This document shows positions 2,077-43,781 of a DNA stretch of 64,000 nt, piece by piece. The stretch covers positions 3,328,689 to 3,392,688 of the forward strand of contig CBDEUD010000003.1 of NCBI GenBank assembly GCA_965243115.1, written 5' to 3'. The position numbers and the translations under genes were made by a program. This stretch comes from Gammaproteobacteria bacterium. Lineage in GTDB: Bacteria > Pseudomonadota > Gammaproteobacteria > Eutrophobiales > Eutrophobiaceae. Numbering within the stretch: position 1 is the first letter of the stretch; every line of letters starts with the position of its first letter. Under the pieces are notes generated by a model. It worked only from the letters and a program-made list of their open reading frames with translations, did no database searches and was not told the origin of the DNA.

Positions 2077-4101
2077 TCAGCCAGCCATATTGTCATGGAT
2101 TTCCAGGCTGAATTCCTTGATGCGCGCTATCTCGTCGCGTATCTCCGCGGCCCGTTCGAATTCCAGGTCGCGGGCATGCCGGTACATCTGCTCTTCCAAC
2201 TGGCTGATTTTCTTCAGCAGCAGGTCCGGGGGCATATCCATATAGCCGGGTTTTTGCTCAGCCACTTTCCCATAACGGCGCGCCTGGCCGCGCTGGTCGC
2301 GGTAAGCCCCTTCAAGGATATCGGTGACTGCCTTGCGGATGCCCTGGGGCGTGATGCCGTGCAGGTCGTTAAATCGCTGTTGTTTATCCCGGCGCCGGTC
2401 GGTTTCCCGCACCGCGCGCTCGATGGAACCGGTTACCGTGTCGGCATACATGATGGCCTTGCCGTTGATGTTGCGGGCGGCGCGTCCTACGGTCTGGATC
2501 AAGGTGGTCTCGGATCGTAAAAAACCTTCCTTGTCGGCGTCCAGGATCGCCACCAGGGATACTTCCGGCATGTCCAGCCCTTCCCGCAGCAGGTTAATCC
2601 CGACCAGCACGTCGAAATTCCCCAGGCGCAGGTCGCGGATGATCTCAACGCGTTCCACCGTGTCGATATCGGAGTGCAGGTAACGCACCTTGACGCCGTG
2701 CTCGGCCAGGTAGTCGGTCAGGTCCTCCGCCATGCGCTTGGTCAGGGTGGTGACCAGCACCCGTTCGTTGCGTTGCTCGCGCAGACGGATTTCCGACAAC
2801 AGGTCGTCCACCTGCGTGGCGACCGGCCGGATTTCCACATCCGGGTCGACCAGGCCCGTGGGACGCACCAGCTGTTCGATAACCTCATCGGACCGGTCAC
2901 GCTCATAAGGACCCGGCGTTGCCGATACGAACACCGTTTGCGGCGCCAGGTATTCAAACTCGTCGAAACGCAGCGGCCGGTTGTCCAGGGCGCAGGGCAG
3001 GCGGAAACCGTATTCCACCAGGTTCTCCTTGCGCGAACGGTCGCCGCGGTACATGGCGCCCAACTGGGGCACGGTGACGTGGCTTTCATCCACCACCAGC
3101 AAGGCATTGTGGGGCAGATAGTCAAACAGGGTCGGCGGCGGTTCACCGGGCCGCCTGCCGGACAGGTGCCGGGAATAGTTCTCAATGCCCGTGCAGTAAC
3201 CGATTTCCATCATCATCTCCAGGTCAAACCGGGTACGTTGCTCCAGGCGTTGAAATTCGACCAGCTTGTTGGCCTGGCGTAATTGCTCCAGGCGTTCCGC
3301 CAGTTCCTCCCTGATGGCTTCTATGGCGTCCAGGATAATCTGGCGTTCGGTGACGTAATGGGTCTTGGGGTGAATGGTGATGCGCGGCACCTGTTTGTGT
3401 ATCTCACCGGTCAGCGGATCAAAGATCGAAATCGATTCGATCTCATCGTCGAACAACTCGACCCGGATCCCCTCGCGTTCCGACTCGGCCGGATAGACGT
3501 CGATAATGTCGCCTCGCACGCGGTACGTGGCGCGGTGCAGTTCCACCTCGTTACGGGTATATTGCATCTCGGCAAGCCGGCGCAGGATAAAGCGCTGGTC
3601 CATGCGCTCGCCCCGGTCCAGGTGCAACACCATCTTCAGGTAGGCCTGGGGATCGCCCAGGCCGTATATGGCGGAAACGGTGGCAACGATGATGGTGTCC
3701 GGACGCTCCAGCAACGCCTTGGTGGCGGACAGGCGCATCTGTTCGATGTGCTCATTGATGGATGCGTCCTTCTCGATGTACGTGTCCGTGGAAGGGACGT
3801 AAGCCTCCGGCTGGTAATAATCGTAGTAAGACACGAAGTACTCCACGGCGTTGCCCGGGAAGAACTCCCGCATTTCGCCGTATAACTGCGCGGCCAGGGT
3901 CTTGTTCGGCGCCAGGATCAGCGTGGGACGCTGTATCTTCTCGACCAGGTTGGCGATGGTAAAGGTCTTGCCGGAACCCGTCACGCCCAGCAGCGTCTGC
4001 TGTGCAATCCCGGACCCGATTGAATGGTATAATGCTTTGATAGCCTCGGGTTGATCGCCCGCAGGAGAAAAGTCAGCCTGTAATTTGAATTTCTTTGTCA
4101 T
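2077..4101 (-). CDS. uvrB: Excinuclease ABC subunit B
   Basis: The 706-aa ORF carries [10 protein letters not shown] (Walker A), helicase motifs and a C-terminal UVR motif ([13 protein letters not shown]). I place the start at the internal ATG ([18 protein letters not shown]...), which matches normal UvrB N-termini. Confidence 0.95.
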
Positions 4102-4250
4102 AGCCTGGTTGAACCGCATTATAATACAGGAATAGGTGTCCCGAAGCAGAACACGGCGGCAGACGTTATCCGGCGTTTTTGTAATCAACCTGAACAAATA
4201 TCAGACAGACTGTTATCGCCCGGCACATTACTTGCAAAGAGGATACCCAC

Positions 4251-9909: not shown

Positions 9910-11130
9910 TCAAACACTGTCCAGAACAGCGCTGAGTTGCCCGGCGAGTACTTTCATATCGTATATTTTTTCGGCATATCGGCGTCCCTTATGTCCCATT
10001 TCCTGCAATTTATCTTCACTCATGCCGGCCATCGAAATGATCGCTTGCGCCAGTGCTTCAGGGGATTCAGGTTCCACACATATCCCGGCCTGCGCTTCAG
10101 CTACCGGGTTATTCACGGCTTCCATCGCCATAATGACGGGGCGCCCCATTGCCAGGTAATCCGGTATCTTGTTCAGGCCAATTCCGTATTTATACAAGGA
10201 CGGCAATTTCCTGCCGCATAGAACGAAAGCATCCGTGTTGCGGGCCGTATCGGCGATTCCGGTTTTGCTGACGGGGGGATGGAAAACCACCCGGTTCATT
10301 CCTCTTGCGCCACAGTAATTCATCAACTCCTGTTTTGCAGGTCCGGCGCCGATAAGGTGGCACTCTATCGACGTAATTCCACGGGAGAGTTCAATAATTT
10401 CCATAGAGCGAACCAGGGTGTACAGGTCATTGGCGGTGCCATGTGCGCCCAGGTAGGTAATCCGGAAAATATTTCCCTTTTGGTAGGGAAGCATATTGCC
10501 TATGTTATCCAGGTCGACGCCGTTGGGAATGCATACCACCTCCGGCGCCCTGATGCTGCGTTCCGACAGATAGTCTGCATACCCCGGAATAATCGAAATC
10601 ACCCTGTCGGCGCACCGGCATAACCATTTTTCAAGCAGGGAAAGGAAAATCGCATACGGGCTGTACCTGTGCATGTAGCCCAGCGCGATATATGATTCCG
10701 GTGAAATGTCGCGTACTTCAAATACGAAAGGGACCCGGTAGCGGCGCGCGAGAATTGCGGCGGCGGCGGCGGCCAACGCATGACCCGATGAACCGATAAT
10801 TACCGAAGGGCGCTCCAGGCCGGCAGTTGTCTTCCTGAGCAGCAGGCGCCAGGTGAACATGACCATGTTGATGATGCGCCCAAACCCGTTATCGCGATAG
10901 TCCGGTGTGTAGATCCAGCGAAAATTGACGTCTGCATAAACTTCAGACCGGTACCGTTCCTGTTTGCCAAGCCTCTGGGTGTGGGTATTCACCTCGACAC
11001 TGGATGCAAAGATCCAGGTTTTCCAACCCCGGCCGAAGATGCACTTTGCCAGATCGAAGTGGCGCGTATGTGACGCCCCGGCCGGTGATGAGGCGTAGTG
11101 GTTGATAATCCATACAGTCCTGCCAGACAT
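9910..11130 (-). CDS. Glycosyltransferase family 4 (WbuB-like)
   Basis: 406-aa GT-B fold pattern. N-terminal IINHYASSP... and a C-terminal GT1/GT4 nucleotide-sugar binding region. Confidence 0.75.
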   Translation of the reverse strand: MSGRTVWIINHYASSPAGASHTRHFDLAKCIFGRGWKTWIFASSVEVNTHTQRLGKQERYRSEVYADVNFRWIYTPDYRDNGFGRIINMVMFTWRLLLRKTTAGLERPSVIIGSSGHALAAAAAAILARRYRVPFVFEVRDISPESYIALGYMHRYSPYAIFLSLLEKWLCRCADRVISIIPGYADYLSERSIRAPEVVCIPNGVDLDNIGNMLPYQKGNIFRITYLGAHGTANDLYTLVRSMEIIELSRGITSIECHLIGAGPAKQELMNYCGARGMNRVVFHPPVSKTGIADTARNTDAFVLCGRKLPSLYKYGIGLNKIPDYLAMGRPVIMAMEAVNNPVAEAQAGICVEPESPEALAQAIISMAGMSEDKLQEMGHKGRRYAEKIYDMKVLAGQLSAVLDSV

Positions 11131-15016: not shown

Positions 15017-15232
15017 ATCCAGGACTCCAATTAAATGTGCGCCTGGCACGCCGACCAGTCTGAAGCAGTCACTAAATTTCCACAACAAGCAGTTATATGT
15101 TTTTTCGCCAGAATGTGGCTTTTCTCACAATTCAGCTAAAGTTCTGCTCCCGAATTCATCTCGACCAATTAAAATGATCGCAACCATATGGAGACAAGCG
15201 CATGAGCGGAGGATAAATTCCATAAAATAACT

Positions 15233-15260
15233 TTGACAAACTAAAGCTTATTGCTATAGT
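15233..15260 (+). promoter_or_regulatory. Sigma70-like promoter for the TA module
   Basis: TTGACA (15233-15238), a 16-nt spacer, then TATAGT (15255-15260), about 20 nt upstream of the GTG start at 15281. ACTAAAGC is repeated on both sides and may be an operator. Confidence 0.5.
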
Positions 15261-15280
15261 TTAGATAACGGACTAAAGCA

Positions 15281-15552
15281 GTGTATCAATTGATAATACG
15301 GAAACAAGCTATCAAGGCATTACAAGGTATGCCAGCCAGGGACTGCGGCCGTATTCGCCATTTGCTGGATAAACTGGCGGAAGATCCTGAGCGACGGGAT
15401 ATCGATGTCAAGCAATTGCGCGGTAACCGGGGCTTCCGGCTGCGGGCAGGCAACCACCGGGTAATCTTCGATCGGAATATGATATTCGCGTGATCGAGAT
15501 ATTACGTATTGGTCCGCGTGGAGATGTTTATAAACAGGGCTATATATTATGA
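15281..15552 (+). pseudogene. RelE/ParE-family toxin gene disrupted by a frameshift near 15473-15475
   Basis: The ORF frame gives MYQLIIRKQAIKAL...GFRLRAGNHRVIFDRNMIFA*. The next frame continues EYDIRVIEILRIGPRGDVYKQGYIL*, the canonical RelE/ParE C-terminus, and ends in an ATGA overlap with the antitoxin start. Confidence 0.65.
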
Positions 15553-15988: not shown

Positions 15989-17104
15989 TTACAACGCTTG
16001 TCGAATAATATTACAAATCCCGCTTTGCGTTTCTTTCTCAAGGTACGGATGCATGGGCAAACTCAGTACCGTTGCGGCAAGCCGTTCGGATACAGATAGA
16101 TCAGGCGCTCCCGGGAAGTCGCTGTACGCAGTCTGCAGGTGCAGGGGTTTGGGATAATAAACTGATGTCGGCACACTGCTTTCTTTCAATCTTTCTGCTA
16201 TCGCATCACGTTCAGTTGATTTTATCGTGTACTGTGCCCACACGGAGGTACACCCTGTACTGGTTGCGGGTACATCGACAGAGTCCTCGAGTTGGGCGCA
16301 ATACCTGTCTGCAACCTGGTTACGCAAGTCGATCTCTTCGGGAAAAACAGCGAGCTTCTCCAGTAGTATCGCCGCCTGGATAGTGTCCAGCCTGCCGTTG
16401 ATACCGATATTCACATTATCGTACTTGTCCGTACCCTTGCCGTGTACCCGCAGGCTTTTCAATCTGCCGGCAAGCTCGTCATCGTCAGTGAACAACGCGC
16501 CCCCGTCACCGTAACAACCAAGGGGTTTTGCCGGGAAAAAACTGGTGGCGGTGACCTCCGCCAGTGTTCCAACTTTGTTGCCGTTCGATTCGGCGCCAAA
16601 ACTTTGTGCGCCGTCACCGATCACAAACAATCCATGTTGCCCGGCAAAGTGGTTGATCTCCATGTAATCGGCCGGCTGCCCGAACAAGTCTACAGGAATG
16701 ATTCCACTGGGATTGAGTCCGTTGCGGGCGGCTGTTGCCAGCGCAGCATCAAGGCCGGCCACGTCCAGCAGAAAACTGTCCGCATCGACATCGACGAAAA
16801 CCGGCGTCGCCCCCAGCAGGGCAACCGCCTCCGCAGTGGCGACAAACGTGAACGAAGGAACTAAAACGGCATCGCCCGGACCCGTACCCTGCGCCATCAA
16901 GGCCATAAGCAGGGCATCCGTGCCGCTGGCACAGGTGATGACGTGCCTGGCCCCGCAAAAACCGGACAGCCTTTCCTCGAGCTCCGCCACCTCCGGACCC
17001 ATGATAAACCGCCCGTGATCCAGTACTTTTTGAATCGCTAATGGAATCCTGTCGCCCAGGCGCCGCTGCTGCGCCTTGAGGTCGATGAATTCTACCTGTC
17101 CCAT
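15989..17104 (-). CDS. wbpE: UDP-2-acetamido-2-deoxy-3-oxo-glucuronate aminotransferase (DegT/DnrJ/EryC1 family, WbpE-like)
   Basis: VEFIDLKAQQRRLGDRI..., SFFPAKPLGCYGDGGALFT and RLDTIQAAILLEKL match WbpE closely as I remember it. Start re-picked at MGQVEFIDL. Confidence 0.85.
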   Translation of the reverse strand: MGQVEFIDLKAQQRRLGDRIPLAIQKVLDHGRFIMGPEVAELEERLSGFCGARHVITCASGTDALLMALMAQGTGPGDAVLVPSFTFVATAEAVALLGATPVFVDVDADSFLLDVAGLDAALATAARNGLNPSGIIPVDLFGQPADYMEINHFAGQHGLFVIGDGAQSFGAESNGNKVGTLAEVTATSFFPAKPLGCYGDGGALFTDDDELAGRLKSLRVHGKGTDKYDNVNIGINGRLDTIQAAILLEKLAVFPEEIDLRNQVADRYCAQLEDSVDVPATSTGCTSVWAQYTIKSTERDAIAERLKESSVPTSVYYPKPLHLQTAYSDFPGAPDLSVSERLAATVLSLPMHPYLEKETQSGICNIIRQAL

Positions 17105-21414: not shown

Positions 21415-21496
21415 AATTTGGGGTCAGAGTAAAAACCTTGAAAATTTCTCCTCCCGGTACTTGTCATCAACAAGGTTTTTACTCTGACCCCAAATT
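21415..21496. repeat. 26-bp perfect inverted repeat with a 30-nt spacer, between two co-directional glycan genes
   Basis: AATTTGGGGTCAGAGTAAAAACCTTG (21415-21440) is the exact reverse complement of 21471-21496. Confidence 0.9.
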
Positions 21497-29789: not shown

Positions 29790-30734
29790 ATGAACAAATC
29801 CATCCTGTCCCTGTGCGGCGGCGTGGGCGGAGCGAAACTGGCGCACGGACTCAGCAAAACAGTCAGCCCGGACGACCTTCTCATCGTGGTCAATACCGGT
29901 GACGACTTTGAACACCTGGGACTGCACATCTCGCCCGACCTGGATACGGTCATGTACACGCTGGCGGGCGTGGCGGACCCGGAGCGGGGCTGGGGCATCG
30001 CCGGCGAGACCTGGAACTTCATGGAGGCGATCGCCGGCTTCGGCGGCCTGGATTGGTTCAGGCTGGGGGACAAGGACCTCGCCACCCACCTGTACCGGAC
30101 CCGGATGCTGGAACAGGGACAGGGACTGGCGCAGGTTACCCGCGCACTGTGCCGTTCCTTCGGCATAGAACACCGAATTGTTCCCATGACCGGCGACCCG
30201 TTGCGCACGCGTGTGGTCACCGACCGGGGGACCCTGCCCTTCCAGGATTATTTCGTGCGCCAGGGTAGCCGGCCCGGGGTGCAGTCAATTGAATTCAGCG
30301 GCGCCGGGCAAGCCCGCGTACACCCGGATTTCGCGGCGATGCTCAACAGCAGTGAGCTGGTCGCAGTCATCCTGTGCCCGTCCAACCCGTTCCTGAGCAT
30401 CGACCCGATCCTGTCCCTTGGAGGCGTGCGTTCAGACCTGCGGTCCGCCGCCGCACCCGTTGTCGCCGTCTCACCCATCGTCGGCGGCAAGGCCCTGAAA
30501 GGCCCCGCGGCCAAGATAATGGACGAACTGGGAATGCCGCCCGGCAACCTGTCAATCGCCGAATATTACCGTGATTTCCTGGATGGGATCGTTATCGACA
30601 CCGGCGACCGGCATGAAACGCAGGCAATCGAGCAACTGGGGATCAGGGTGAAACTCACCAATACCGTTATGCGCTCCCGGCAGGACAGGATAGACCTGGC
30701 TGAAACCTGCCTGGAATTTGCGATCAGTTTTTAG
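29790..30734 (+). CDS. cofD: 2-phospho-L-lactate transferase (CofD/FbiA)
   Basis: LCGGVGGAKLAHGL, VNTGDDFEHLGLHISPDLDTVMYTLAG and CPSNPFLSIDPIL. Start re-picked at MNKSILSL. Confidence 0.85.
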   Translation: MNKSILSLCGGVGGAKLAHGLSKTVSPDDLLIVVNTGDDFEHLGLHISPDLDTVMYTLAGVADPERGWGIAGETWNFMEAIAGFGGLDWFRLGDKDLATHLYRTRMLEQGQGLAQVTRALCRSFGIEHRIVPMTGDPLRTRVVTDRGTLPFQDYFVRQGSRPGVQSIEFSGAGQARVHPDFAAMLNSSELVAVILCPSNPFLSIDPILSLGGVRSDLRSAAAPVVAVSPIVGGKALKGPAAKIMDELGMPPGNLSIAEYYRDFLDGIVIDTGDRHETQAIEQLGIRVKLTNTVMRSRQDRIDLAETCLEFAISF

Positions 30735-30818
30735 TTTCTGGTTTTTAGTGGCTGGACTGATAACTCCTTGAATGCTCCATATCCAATACCCCTTACTAAA
30801 AACCAGAAACTAAAAACT
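30726..30818. repeat. 24-bp perfect inverted repeat (45-nt spacer) whose arms hold the stop codons of both convergent genes
   Basis: AGTTTTTAGTTTCTGGTTTTTAGT (30726-30749) is the reverse complement of 30795-30818. The cofD TAG is at 30732-30734 and the hydroxylase stop is at comp(30817-30819). Confidence 0.9.
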
Positions 30819-36964: not shown

Positions 36965-37693
36965 ATGGTTAACGCGATTATATTGAGCGCGGGTCAGGGC
37001 AAAAGACTGCTGCCCCTGACCGAGGAATGCCCCAAGTGCATGCTGCGCGTGGCAGGCAAAAGCATACTGGAATGGCAGGTGCAGGCATTGCTGGCGGCAC
37101 AAATCGACAAGCTGTTCATCATCACCGGGTTTAATTCGGACCTGGTCGAAGCTCACATACAGGACCGTTTCGGCGCCGAACGGGACCGCATCGACATCGT
37201 CTACAACCCCTTCTACAGCATCTCCGACAACCTGGCGAGTTGCTGGATGGCGCGCCATGCCATGGATGAGGACTTTATCCTGTTGAACGGGGACACGCTG
37301 TTCGAACCGGCGCTGCTGGATACGGTGCTCCGGTCAGAGCCGGCGCCGGTAACCTTGACCGTCGACTTCAAGGACAGCTACGACAACGACGATATGCGCG
37401 TCGAACTGAATGACTTCATGGTGAAATCCGTCAGCAAAACACTGCCGGATGAACATACCAATGCGGAATCCATCGGCCTGCTGTATTTCCGGGGAAAGGG
37501 AACCGCTTTATTCCGCGAGCATCTTGACCGGCAGATGAAGCAGGGAACCGGTTTGCGTTTATGGTTCCTGAGCGTGGTGGATGCGCTGGCCCGGCAATCC
37601 CTGGTGCGGGCTTGCAGCATAAACGGGCACCGGTGGTGTGAGATCGACTTTAAGAGGGATCTGGAGAATGCTGAATCCGTCTTTCTCACTTAA
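36965..37693 (+). CDS. Sugar/alcohol-phosphate nucleotidyl(cytidylyl)transferase (LicC/IspD-like fold)
   Basis: AIILSAGQGKRLLPLT (GxGxRxxPxT-type loop) and ILLNGDTLF. Confidence 0.7.
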   Translation: MVNAIILSAGQGKRLLPLTEECPKCMLRVAGKSILEWQVQALLAAQIDKLFIITGFNSDLVEAHIQDRFGAERDRIDIVYNPFYSISDNLASCWMARHAMDEDFILLNGDTLFEPALLDTVLRSEPAPVTLTVDFKDSYDNDDMRVELNDFMVKSVSKTLPDEHTNAESIGLLYFRGKGTALFREHLDRQMKQGTGLRLWFLSVVDALARQSLVRACSINGHRWCEIDFKRDLENAESVFLT

Positions 37694-37716
37694 GTTGAAT
37701 GTGATAAGCATCGAGC

Positions 37717-37890
37717 AGGGTGGGATGGTATTTTAAGGACCCGCTGTAAATACATCCCTGTACGTTCATTGCGCCCATCCCTGGGCGCAACCCTTCGGGC
37801 GGCTAACGCCGTGCAAATCGGCTGTCCTGCCGATTTGTTACCGTCAGCCATCCCTGGCTGACGATAGTCCTTAAAATACCATCCCACCCT
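37717..37890 (-). ncRNA. Candidate structured RNA E1: a 24-bp outer stem enclosing four hairpins with GGA-containing loops
   Basis: The arms 37717-37740 and 37867-37890 are perfect reverse complements. Minus-strand hairpins are CAGCCA-GGGA-UGGCUG, CAAAUCGGC-AGGACA-GCCGAUUUG, GCGCCCA-GGGA-UGGGCGC and UACA-GGGA-UGUA. The structure is certain; transcription and function are not shown. Confidence 0.45.
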
Positions 37891-37937
37891 CCAGATCGTG
37901 AACAATGCTGACGATTTTGGATAAGCGTCCCGACAGC

Positions 37938-38741
37938 TCAGTCGTAGCGACCTCCCAGAATCTTTTCCGCCAGTTCCAGGTCTGCTGGTGTGTCTACATC
38001 AATGCCTGCATGGGCAAATGGAATTTCGATAAAATCCACCGTGATGCCGGTAGCTTTATTAACAGCCTCCCGGGTCTGCTGCAGGCTCAGGCGGCCGCAG
38101 GCATAGCGCACCAGCGCGGCGAAGCCGAATAAACTGAGGGCCATGCGCCAGGGTTGTTTACGGTGTGCCTGTGCCCGTTGCCACAAGGAGATGATGTCCC
38201 TGGCGCGGGCGCCGTCGAGCGCGTACAGGTTACAACCGCAATATGCGCCTTCGGAAAACTTCAGCACCGTGCGCCGCACCCCGGGGTACGCCGCCTCGAT
38301 CCGGCCGTAATCCACCAGTGCTACGTTGACGTCAGCTTTGTTGTCGACCGCCCTGTCCAGAAAACAATTCAATATCGCATCGTCCAGCAGCGCATGGTCC
38401 GCGGTCGTGATCAGGACGAGCGAGGCGGGATCGATCCTTGCCAGGCCGGCCTGCACACTACCGCTGAGGCTGTCAGAGGCGGGAATCCAGGTGGCAGTGT
38501 CCTGGTTGACGAATGCCTGTAACTGCGGGTAACTCTCAACCGCGTCAGGGCCGGGGCCGCATAGTACGAATGAATCGATGCGAGCGCTCGCCTGCAGCGC
38601 CTCCAGCACGCGGATGATCATCGGTACGCCCGCGAGCGGCGCCAGTGCCTTGCACGGGACGCCGGAAAGCTGCGCGACCTCGTCAACGCCGCCGCGCTCC
38701 CCGGCCAGCAGCAGTGCGGTGATGTTCCGCTTATGCGCCAT
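37938..38741 (-). CDS. MobA-like NTP transferase family protein
   Basis: ALLLAGERGG...CKALAPLAGVPMI and a C-terminal GIDVDTPADLELAE, typical of the NTP_transf_3 fold. Confidence 0.65.
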   Translation of the reverse strand: MAHKRNITALLLAGERGGVDEVAQLSGVPCKALAPLAGVPMIIRVLEALQASARIDSFVLCGPGPDAVESYPQLQAFVNQDTATWIPASDSLSGSVQAGLARIDPASLVLITTADHALLDDAILNCFLDRAVDNKADVNVALVDYGRIEAAYPGVRRTVLKFSEGAYCGCNLYALDGARARDIISLWQRAQAHRKQPWRMALSLFGFAALVRYACGRLSLQQTREAVNKATGITVDFIEIPFAHAGIDVDTPADLELAEKILGGRYD

Positions 38742-42468: not shown

Positions 42469-43377
42469 ATGACGGAGCAGGTGGCGCTCACCGGCGCCAC
42501 GGGATTTATCGGACAGAACCTCCTGGCCGCACTGGAAAAATCAGGTTACCGCACCCGCGCACTGACCCGCAGGCCGCGTCCCGGTTCCGGACCCGTATCC
42601 TGGATCCACGGCGACCTGGATAACCCGCAAGCCCTGGACAAACTCGTCGACGGATGCACAGCCGTGATCCACTGCGCCGGCACGGTCAGGGGAAACTCAC
42701 TAAATGACTTCCTGGAAATCAACCTGAAGGGAACCGAAAACCTGCTGGAAGCGGCCGCTAAACCGGCCTCCCCGCCCAGGTTCCTGTTACTCTCCTCACT
42801 CGCCGCCAGGTACCCCGACTATTCCTGGTATTCCCGCAGCAAATCCATGGCGGAAGCACTGCTGATGTCGGACAAATACACCGGAATGTCCCGCACCATA
42901 TACCGCCCCAGCGCGGTCTACGGCCCCGGCGACAGGGAAATGCGCCCCCTGTTCCGCCTCATGCGCCGCGGTTACCTGGTCGGACCCCGCATACCCGGCA
43001 ACAGGATCAGCCTCATCCACGTCGACGACCTGGTACGCGCCATCCTGCAATGGCTGCCGGCAAAACAGGCACAAGGCACCTTCGAACTGGACGACGGCGC
43101 CACACAAGGATACACATGGGAAGACATCACGGCCATCGCTTCCGACACCTGGCAGCGCCCCGTAACCCACATCCGGGTCCCGGTCACATTGCTGAGAGGC
43201 ATTGCCCACGTCAACCTGCTCCTGGCCCAGACGTTCCGTTACCGGGCGATGCTCACCCCCGGAAAAGTTAACGAAATCACCCACGAAAACTGGGTATGCG
43301 ATAATACGCCGTTGACGAACTGCCTGGGATGGAAACCGGAAATTAGTCTGTCTGATTCAATCAAGACAGTTATATAA
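42469..43377 (+). CDS. NAD(P)-dependent SDR (epimerase/dehydratase fold; CerR-like by context)
   Basis: LTGATGFIGQNL and YSRSK (YxxxK). Confidence 0.7.
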   Translation: MTEQVALTGATGFIGQNLLAALEKSGYRTRALTRRPRPGSGPVSWIHGDLDNPQALDKLVDGCTAVIHCAGTVRGNSLNDFLEINLKGTENLLEAAAKPASPPRFLLLSSLAARYPDYSWYSRSKSMAEALLMSDKYTGMSRTIYRPSAVYGPGDREMRPLFRLMRRGYLVGPRIPGNRISLIHVDDLVRAILQWLPAKQAQGTFELDDGATQGYTWEDITAIASDTWQRPVTHIRVPVTLLRGIAHVNLLLAQTFRYRAMLTPGKVNEITHENWVCDNTPLTNCLGWKPEISLSDSIKTVI

Positions 43378-43391
43378 TAGCGATAGTGCCA

Positions 43392-43498
43392 GACGGCTTC
43401 ATGTAAGCGATTCAGGACTATCATCCGCAGGGAAAGCGGATGGTAAGCGTACATGGACGTATTTACAGCGGGTCCTGAATCGCTTACATGAAGCCGTC
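43392..43498 (+). ncRNA. Candidate structured RNA E2, a short homologue of E1: a 27-bp outer stem around GGA hairpins
   Basis: GACGGCTTCATGTAAGCGATTCAGGAC (43392-43418) is the reverse complement of 43472-43498. Inner hairpin CAUCCGC-AGGGAAA-GCGGAUG. The 3' core CGTACATGGACGTATTTACAGCGGGTCCT is nearly identical to E1 read on the minus strand. Confidence 0.45.
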
Positions 43499-43526: not shown

Positions 43527-43781
43527 ATGCCCGCTAGCTATGAGGAAATTCTTGAAAAAGTCACCAGTGAGTTGTCAAAGCTTACTCCGTCCGGGGTAGA
43601 GCTAAGCGAAGATTCCGAACTGGTCACGGAACTAGGCCTGGATTCATTCAAAGTCCTGGACCTGCTCATGGACATCGAAGACGAGTTCGACATCTCCATG
43701 CCGGTCAACCTCCTTGCCGACGTGCACACCGTAAAAGACCTGGCTGACCGGATTCATTCCGTAGTCAATTCATCAACCTAG
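43527..43781 (+). CDS. Acyl carrier protein
   Basis: 84 aa with LGLDSFKVLDLLMDIEDEF (phosphopantetheine Ser in a DS motif). Start re-picked at MPASYEEIL. Confidence 0.85.
   Translation: MPASYEEILEKVTSELSKLTPSGVELSEDSELVTELGLDSFKVLDLLMDIEDEFDISMPVNLLADVHTVKDLADRIHSVVNSST

Follow-up and report, generated by a model that had tools for sequence, protein, structure and literature searches.

The palindromic repeat YPAL, or RU-2, is described in reviews as an intergenic element of about 168 bp, with a 130–136 bp variant (YPAL*), that reaches 30–100 copies in Yersinia pestis. According to the same reviews, its copies lie near stop codons, are co-transcribed and form stable hairpins; their target duplications are variable (3–26 bp) and located at or near dyad symmetries or terminators, and filled and empty sites differ between strains. 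Catalogued in Rfam as Ysr224 (RF02770), the element is ranked in the literature among the most abundant "small RNAs" (sRNAs) owing to its many copies, and transcripts from multiple copies are described there as detected. Here we analyze a 174-nt element, E1, located on the minus strand at positions 37717–37890 of a 64,000-nt stretch of gammaproteobacterial DNA (contig CBDEUD010000003.1; hereafter, the window), and we conclude with good confidence that E1 is a repeat element. The fuller reading that we favor, and that we regard as moderately likely, is that E1 represents the long form of a small insertion element, palindromic and non-coding, resembling miniature inverted-repeat transposable elements (MITEs) and REP sequences and belonging to the YPAL/RU-2 superfamily, which forms an RNA hairpin upon transcriptional read-through and may have a role involving CsrA.

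Two further sets of described systems bear on the interpretation of this locus. RsmA and RsmF recognize the consensus CANGGAYG, RUACARGGAUGU is the published consensus string for CsrA sites, and the validated sponge RsmV presents four CANGGAYG stem-loops within 192 nt. In the NEMIS and ERIC repeats, long co-transcribed hairpins alter the fate of neighboring mRNAs, through RNase III for NEMIS and RNase E for ERIC. The initial annotation of the window had advanced E1 as a possible new class of Rsm/Csr sponge.

The arms of E1 (37717–37740, AGGGTGGGATGGTATTTTAAGGAC, and 37867–37890) are exact reverse complements, and the 24-bp perfect outer stem reported in that annotation is thus real; no match of any kind arose in 100 shuffles (0/100). 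On the minus strand, which carries the GGA sense, E1 folds at −108.2 kcal/mol (z = −14.5) into six hairpins enclosed by the outer stem. Four of the six carry GGA in their loop, as had been described, and the two without GGA had been overlooked. The plus strand folds at −101.8 kcal/mol (z = −12.5), so that folding energy provides no basis for choosing between strands. From 5′ to 3′ on the minus strand, the components of E1 are:

37867–37890, minus strand: 5′ arm of the outer stem, terminating with the conserved GGAC
37842–37863, minus strand: hairpin 1 (HP1), CGUCAGCC-AGGGA-UGGCUGACG, with loop CAGGGAUG; the stem covaries across the family
37765–37837, minus strand: 73-nt module of the long form, comprising HP-A, the two hairpins without GGA and HP-D
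37814–37837, minus strand: HP-A, CAAAUCGGC-AGGACA-GCCGAUUUG, with GGA loop AGGACA
37800–37811, minus strand: small hairpin without GGA, CGGCGUUAGCCG
37791–37799, minus strand: small hairpin without GGA, CCCGAAGGG
37769–37790, minus strand: HP-D, UUGCGCCC-AGGGA-UGGGCGCAA, with loop CAGGGAUG
37751–37763, minus strand: hairpin 2 (HP2), GUACA-GGGA-UGUA (GUACAGGGAUGUA), the most conserved hairpin of the family, which fits both CANGGAYG and RUACARGGAUGU
37741–37750, minus strand: conserved single-stranded tail UUUACAGCGG, separating HP2 from the outer stem
37717–37740, minus strand: 3′ arm of the outer stem, starting with the conserved GUCC

Three of the four GGA loops share CAGGGAUG, which fits the RsmA/RsmF consensus CANGGAYG, and all 3 occurrences of CAGGGATG in the window fall within E1 and on the minus strand. 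The segment GUACAGGGAUGU agrees with RUACARGGAUGU at 12/12 positions, as the initial annotation had proposed, and the consensus string itself was found in the literature.

Homologues of E1 were sought through exact-word scans of genome and metagenome collections, which located them in Marinobacter (L003, L005, L016), a Cellvibrionaceae metagenome-assembled genome (L012), unclassified Gammaproteobacteria (L011, L015, L017) and ocean metagenome contigs (L018, L019). These homologues present the same core within an outer stem of 21–31 bp that is mostly perfect and whose sequence is specific to each locus. The conserved core of the family runs from HP1, whose loop is of CANGGAYG type, through a linker to HP2, whose loop is CANGGAYG, and closes with UUUAC(A/G)GCG; the long inverted arms around it vary in sequence by locus and lineage and retain their base-pairing. 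The exact 17-mer matched 15 loci in the genome collection, 10 of these 15 by chance. We considered and dropped the notion that the family has a low copy number (one exact 17-mer per genome), because GTATTCACAGCGG variants in relatives escape exact matching. A BLAST search of E1 against Escherichia coli genomes and plasmids returned nothing, and neither did a scan of viral contigs with a 21-mer.

An alignment (A1) of 15 short-form copies, all of them marine, was used to build a covariance model (R1). In A1, 97.4% of the cells are paired, and both sides have changed in 21 of the 31 pairs (16/20 in the outer stem and 5/7 in HP1), a number matched in 0 of 500 shuffles; sliding the partner by 1–3 columns brings the paired fraction to 32–38%. 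R1 assigns 67.7 bits to E1 (E 8e-13), and searches with this model yielded additional copies, some of them degenerate, truncated or nested. Within the window, the search for further copies of the core suggested in the initial annotation is successful: GTATTTACAGCGGGTCC of E1 recurs exactly at 43459–43475 on the plus strand, inside a paralogue 5.5 kb from E1:

43392–43498, plus strand: E2, a short-form paralogue of 107 nt, scoring 103.3 bits with R1, whose outer stem is perfect over 27 bp and unlike that of E1 in sequence

E1 and E2 share the layout GGAC-UAUC-[HP1, GGA loop]-GGUAA...GUACANGGAYGUA-UUUACAGCGG-GUCC, and the 73-nt internal module is present in E1 and not in E2. The latter lies in GGA sense within a same-strand operon related to lipids, between an epimerase gene (ending at 43377) and an acyl-carrier-protein gene (starting at 43527).

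The relationship with YPAL/RU-2 emerges from searches in both directions. At gathering score, Rfam identifies 4 tRNAs and nothing else in the 64-kb window. Permissive Rfam scans of E1 and E2 provided only a weak Ysr224 match and spurious matches to microRNA precursors, which we attribute to the long stem. The Ysr224 match, the only Rfam signal of E1, has a score of 20.3 bits at E 0.047 and lies on the complement of the GGA-sense strand; the same model does not match E2, nor the L003, L012 and L018 copies at E up to 1. A search with the Ysr224 consensus recovered copies on plasmids of Yersinia, Pantoea, Klebsiella, Citrobacter, Enterobacter and E. coli. R1, which contains no enterobacterial sequence, scores 47.8 bits (E 2e-9) on the Yersinia similis plasmid copy, 59.6 and 45.9 bits on two Enterobacter copies, 38.7 bits on a Pantoea copy and 37.5 bits on an E. 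coli plasmid copy. The R1 match in Y. similis falls inside a segment (L024, ~3945–4110) that is near-exact, with few differences, to the published 168-nt RU-2/YPAL of Y. pestis CO92, and the E1-type tail UUUACAGCGG corresponds to UUUACGGCG in Yersinia YPAL. Ysr224 scores decrease gradually, from 133.9, 72.4, 39.5 and 38.9 bits for enterobacterial copies to 20.3 bits for E1, and this graded series points to E1 as a distant relative of YPAL/RU-2 located beyond the boundary of the Rfam family. As a separate observation, the YPAL copy on the Y. similis plasmid is directly adjoined by a ryfA RNA (L024 3631–3914, minus strand; 179.5 bits).

Orthologous sites were compared on syntenic loci fetched via the neighboring 267-aa protein, using relatives at 70–87% identity; an exact look-up of the protein next to E1 returned no record. 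Five of these relatives (L020, L021, L022, L023 and L028) contain a further copy, E0, in reverse orientation and 11 nt past the stop of the gene. In L020–L022, where E1 is present, E0 stands ahead of it, between the stop of the gene and E1. In the window E0 has been deleted, leaving only one trace:

37913–37928, minus strand: 16-nt remnant of the distal arm of E0 (ACGCTTATCCAAAATC), a reverse-oriented copy lost in the window and intact in the five relatives

E0 is also absent in L029, which lacks both E1 and E2 and has an intergenic gap of 27 nt between the two genes, and E1 is likewise missing in L023. Long forms (~178 nt) and short forms (~106 nt) alternate at the same sites. E1 is long in the window and short, without the 73-nt module, in L020, L021 and L022. 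For E2, the short form occurs in the window, L022 and L028, and the long form, with the module, in L020 and L021; E0 in L021 is a long form with a nested hairpin in reverse orientation. In L028, E0 is followed (10913–11110) by about five tandem 49-nt repeats, composed of the 3′ half of HP1, the arm and a spacer, which look like the product of replication slippage at the element, and a copy of E1 type, with an E1-type 3′ arm, occupies another locus (3685–3759). In L030, two intergenic segments (15110–15505 and 16671–16886) are mosaics of HP-A, HP-D and HP2 homologues in both orientations and without the usual outer stem. In these comparisons the orthologous sites turn over in the manner of a repeat that is dispersed and unstable; a conserved sRNA gene would not behave in this way.

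The arms show a distinctive mode of change. Compensated substitutions are found among orthologues at position 13 of the E1 arm (U-A in the window, U.G in L022, C-G in L020 and L021) and at position 6 of the E2 arm (C-G, U-A or G-C). Between the orthologous Marinobacter copies L003 7856–7967 and L005 2628–2737, the core is identical at 64/66 positions, with both differences at N, whereas the middles of the arms are unrelated and yet the arms remain complementary; with third codon positions of the neighboring gene 63% identical, the arms diverge faster than these. We rejected the proposal that the outer arms are inverted target duplications: the arms of E0 and E2 are homologous over all 27 nt, and the E1-type 3′ arm recurs at L028 3685–3759.

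Across the family, sizes range from 101–114 nt in short forms to 174 nt in E1 and ~178 nt in long forms. Copies follow a stop codon at 11–47 nt (47 and 23 for E1, 14 for E2, 11 for E0, 18 for L003c and 29–43 in Halomonas). They occur in both orientations, often as head-to-head doublets between convergent genes (E0/E1; L003c/L003b; L018 856–961 with 1145–1258; L027 1262–1356 with 1485–1576). Some copies (Yersinia, L003c, L012 and the reverse copy of L018) have CGTC directly 5′ of HP1; the window copies have TATC before HP1, rather than CGTC or GTAG. The 64-kb window contains 2 copies, relatives have 3 inside a stretch of 6 kb, and a 240-kb sample of a 1.83-Mb Halomonas replicon contains 4; extrapolation yields tens of copies per genome.

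E1 is flanked by two genes that converge on it:

37938–38741, minus strand: nucleotidyltransferase gene (PF12804), upstream of E1; its read-through RNA would hold E1 in GGA sense
36965–37693, plus strand: convergent sugar-phosphate nucleotidyltransferase gene; its read-through RNA would hold E1 in the opposite (UCCC-loop) sense

E1 starts 47 nt past the stop of 37938–38741, a distance correctly given in the initial annotation together with the fact that the GGA strand of E1 is the sense strand of that gene, and lies 23 nt past the stop of 36965–37693. Between 37400 and 38200 there is no promoter-like (sigma-70-like) site, and the sole terminator-like site (38036–38053) lies within gene 37938–38741, so that none adjoins E1; the E1 stem is not followed by a U-tract. 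A candidate GacA box in E2 (TGTAAG...CTTACA, ~65 nt apart) was discarded, since it is merely part of the inverted arms. With neither promoter nor terminator of its own, E1 should reach RNA through read-through of the flanking convergent genes, and it is probably co-transcribed as a hairpin in a 3′ untranslated region.

Read-through of 37938–38741 would append a very stable, multi-branched E1 hairpin to the mRNA. Situated at the mRNA 3′ end, this hairpin could, by analogy with YPAL, ERIC and NEMIS, act as a barrier to exonucleases or as a target for a double-stranded RNase such as RNase III. An effect of the RNA hairpin on the flanking mRNAs is fairly likely. On the transcript of 37938–38741 the hairpin would in addition display four CsrA/RsmA-type sites, which could tether or titrate CsrA; the transcript of 36965–37693 would instead carry the complementary hairpin, with no GGA loops.

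Family loops follow the pattern CA-N-GGA-Y-G, in which GGA is invariant, all four bases (G, U, C, A) occur at N and both pyrimidines (U, C) at Y. Members as far apart as those of Yersinia, Halomonas, Marinobacter and Cellvibrionaceae keep this pattern on stems that vary, and the HP2 stem covaries in distant members (UAC/GUA, UCC/GGA, GCC/GGC, GUC/GAC, CCC/GGG). Invariant loops on varying stems are what would be expected if a conserved trans-acting factor bound the presented loop, and CsrA/RsmA is the obvious candidate; no csrA gene was found by motif scan in the window. Binding of CsrA/RsmA by copies transcribed in GGA sense, such as E1 relative to 37938–38741, is plausible on these grounds, and that CsrA/RsmA binding is real we put forward as a tentative proposal. 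Decidedly speculative, and in our view improbable, is the broader suggestion that the YPAL superfamily in its entirety, in Yersinia as well as in marine hosts (Halomonas, Marinobacter, Cellvibrionaceae and the source organism), represents a mobile cassette of CsrA/RsmA sites whose core is kept for that purpose. Under such a scheme, insertion in GGA sense would place an mRNA under CsrA control, transcribed copies would together form a distributed, mRNA-borne sponge, and the long-form module of E1 would double the number of sites.

Several observations weigh against parts of the interpretation favored here. Regarding the assignment to a YPAL-like repeat family, only two copies have been seen in the source genome, from 64 kb of it; no target-site duplication or direct repeat adjoins the arms in 12 marine copies; and no transposase is known for the repeat family of E1, none having been searched for here. 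The Ysr224 score of E1 is far under the gathering score of 70 for that model, and enterobacterial YPAL copies are flanked by duplicated terminator hairpins, unlike marine copies. With respect to CsrA, the strand annotated for Ysr224 in Rfam is the opposite of the GGA sense. Between same-strand genes, moreover, orientation is mixed, with ~3 copies in GGA sense (E2 and two in Halomonas) vs ~4 antisense (L011, L028-E3, one in Halomonas and the E. coli plasmid copy). In three head-to-head doublets, either convergent gene reaches a copy in reverse sense first, and wobble pairs do not favor either strand (7 G.U vs ~6 A.C on the GGA-sense strand). Mixed orientation, doublet arrangement and balanced mismatches are thus neutral or negative, and CsrA binding is something that we infer.

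The best-surviving alternative holds that the family is a selfish repeat acting at the DNA level, in which hairpins and loops serve as single-stranded-DNA sites for a transposase or recombinase, as in REP/RAYT systems, so that the likeness to CsrA sites is coincidental and any RNA effect incidental. Orientation that is random relative to transcription, mismatches without strand asymmetry and head-to-head doublets flanked by convergent genes, an arrangement shared with REP/BIME families, all agree with this explanation, as do the deletions, the tandem amplification and the nested or mosaic copies. The arms, perfectly complementary even as they outpace third codon positions, suggest arm-to-arm copying of DNA, and a templated correction of one arm by the other at the DNA level is one idea that could explain them. 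Against this, the eight CANGGAYG positions are kept from Yersinia to Cellvibrionaceae, varying only at N and Y while the stems are free, whereas catalogued REP families split largely by differences in stem and loop, and many do not extend beyond a single species or genus. None of the copies was seen to have a transposase gene beside it, although no systematic search for transposases was made. On balance, we deem a purely DNA-level repeat rather unlikely.

A dedicated gene for a Csr/Rsm-type sponge sRNA of a new class, with its own promoter and a stable ~170-nt RNA, is a very improbable explanation. The architecture that had inspired it is real: there are four GGA-loop hairpins, three of them with loop CAGGGAUG and one matching RUACARGGAUGU throughout, in a number akin to that of RsmV; the core is strongly conserved, homologues from several orders of Gammaproteobacteria keep the GGA-in-loop architecture, and their loops fit CANGGAYG on stems that covary. 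The claim of a sponge class fails on the remaining evidence. In addition to the missing promoter-like and terminator signals, Rfam models of Csr/Rsm families (CsrB, CsrC, RsmX, RsmY, RsmZ and others), the scan proposed in the initial annotation, gave no match at gathering score in the whole window, nor over 37500–38100 even at E up to 10. At the orthologous site, three relatives carry a short form with two hairpins and two relatives have no E1; paralogues such as E2 occur in both orientations, within operons and antisense to genes; and the core shares homology with a repeat already known to be multi-copy. The initial annotation had conceded that E1 might turn out to be one of hundreds of orientation-random REP/MITE copies, and this is essentially what we find, with tens of copies per genome by extrapolation and hundreds not shown. 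Three other candidates are set aside on anatomical grounds: a retron non-coding RNA (no reverse transcriptase gene was seen among the annotated neighboring genes), an integron attC site (there is no array and there are no extrahelical bases) and small ribozymes (no Rfam match).

The window contains other repeats. Between convergent genes at 30726–30818 lies an unrelated element of 93 nt whose 24-bp arms (AGTTTTTAGTTTCTGGTTTTTAGT) are perfect; its site, vacant in L023 and L028 and occupied by other palindromic elements in L022, L029 and L030, looks like an insertion hotspot. At 21415–21496, perfectly complementary arms of 26 bp enclose a 30-nt spacer, forming another inverted repeat whose sequence is unrelated to E1. 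Arrays of ~21-nt units (AAATTCAGGACAACCATAAATT), direct and inverted, occupy 49756–49824 and 50834–50953; AAATTTGGGACACCCATAAATT units resembling them are present in L029 and L030, and these arrays are probably another small repeat family.

Should the classification of E1 as a repeat hold, the candidate "new sRNA class" would turn into an uncharacterized marine branch of the repeats that were described from Yersinia in 2006, and the YPAL-type family spans at least four orders of Gammaproteobacteria as well as plasmids. Catalogues of sRNAs, such as those listing Ysr224 among the "most abundant sRNAs", may then be counting repeat copies. The wider interest lies in a mobile repeat endowed with two to four hairpins of CsrA/RsmA consensus, in which the protein-contact positions are invariant and all else is variable; its spread would offer a possible route for a global post-transcriptional regulator to gain targets or to be titrated. 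Within the library searched, we came across no paper that connects YPAL or Ysr224 with CsrA.

Comparison with known systems places E1 among several of them. Like the Csr/Rsm sponge sRNAs (CsrB, CsrC, RsmX/Y/Z, RsmV and RsmW), E1 combines several hairpins with GGA in CANGGAYG, and the number and spacing of sites in RsmV resemble those in E1. In contrast to these sRNAs, E1 lacks its own promoter, a GacA/UvrY box, a terminator and a match to their covariance models, and it is embedded in a long helix, multi-copy, present in both orientations and unstable at orthologous sites. With REP, BIME and REPIN sequences (tagged with GTAG or CGTC) the E1 family shares intergenic hairpins after genes, head-to-head dimers between convergent genes and mosaic clusters. 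The REP/BIME unit, however, is a palindrome of 20–40 nt, whereas members of the E1 family measure ~100–180 nt and contain two different hairpins. REP families are classed largely by stem and loop differences, while the E1 family has conserved loops and variable stems, and among its members the CGTC tag appears only in some distant copies, the window copies carrying TATC. The Correia/NEMIS and ERIC MITEs provide a precedent for the RNA-level effect proposed for E1; they bear no sequence relation to it, are bounded by terminal inverted repeats that are fixed and by TA duplications, and have no described GGA-loop hairpins.

The closest likeness is to YPAL/RU-2 (De Gregorio et al. 2006; Delihas 2007), which shares with the E1 family a homologous core (HP1 GCGCCAAGGAUGGCGC, HP2 UACAUGGAUGUA and tail UUUACGGCG), long inverted arms around this core, a length of 130–170 nt with size variants, an intergenic location just past stop codons, and filled and empty sites among relatives. 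The arms of YPAL/RU-2 are ~55 nt long and imperfect, whereas those of marine copies span 21–31 bp, are mostly perfect and close with GGAC/GUCC. E1 further differs from YPAL/RU-2 in its 73-nt module with two extra GGA hairpins, and its family resides in marine Gammaproteobacteria, whereas the hosts of YPAL/RU-2 are Enterobacterales.

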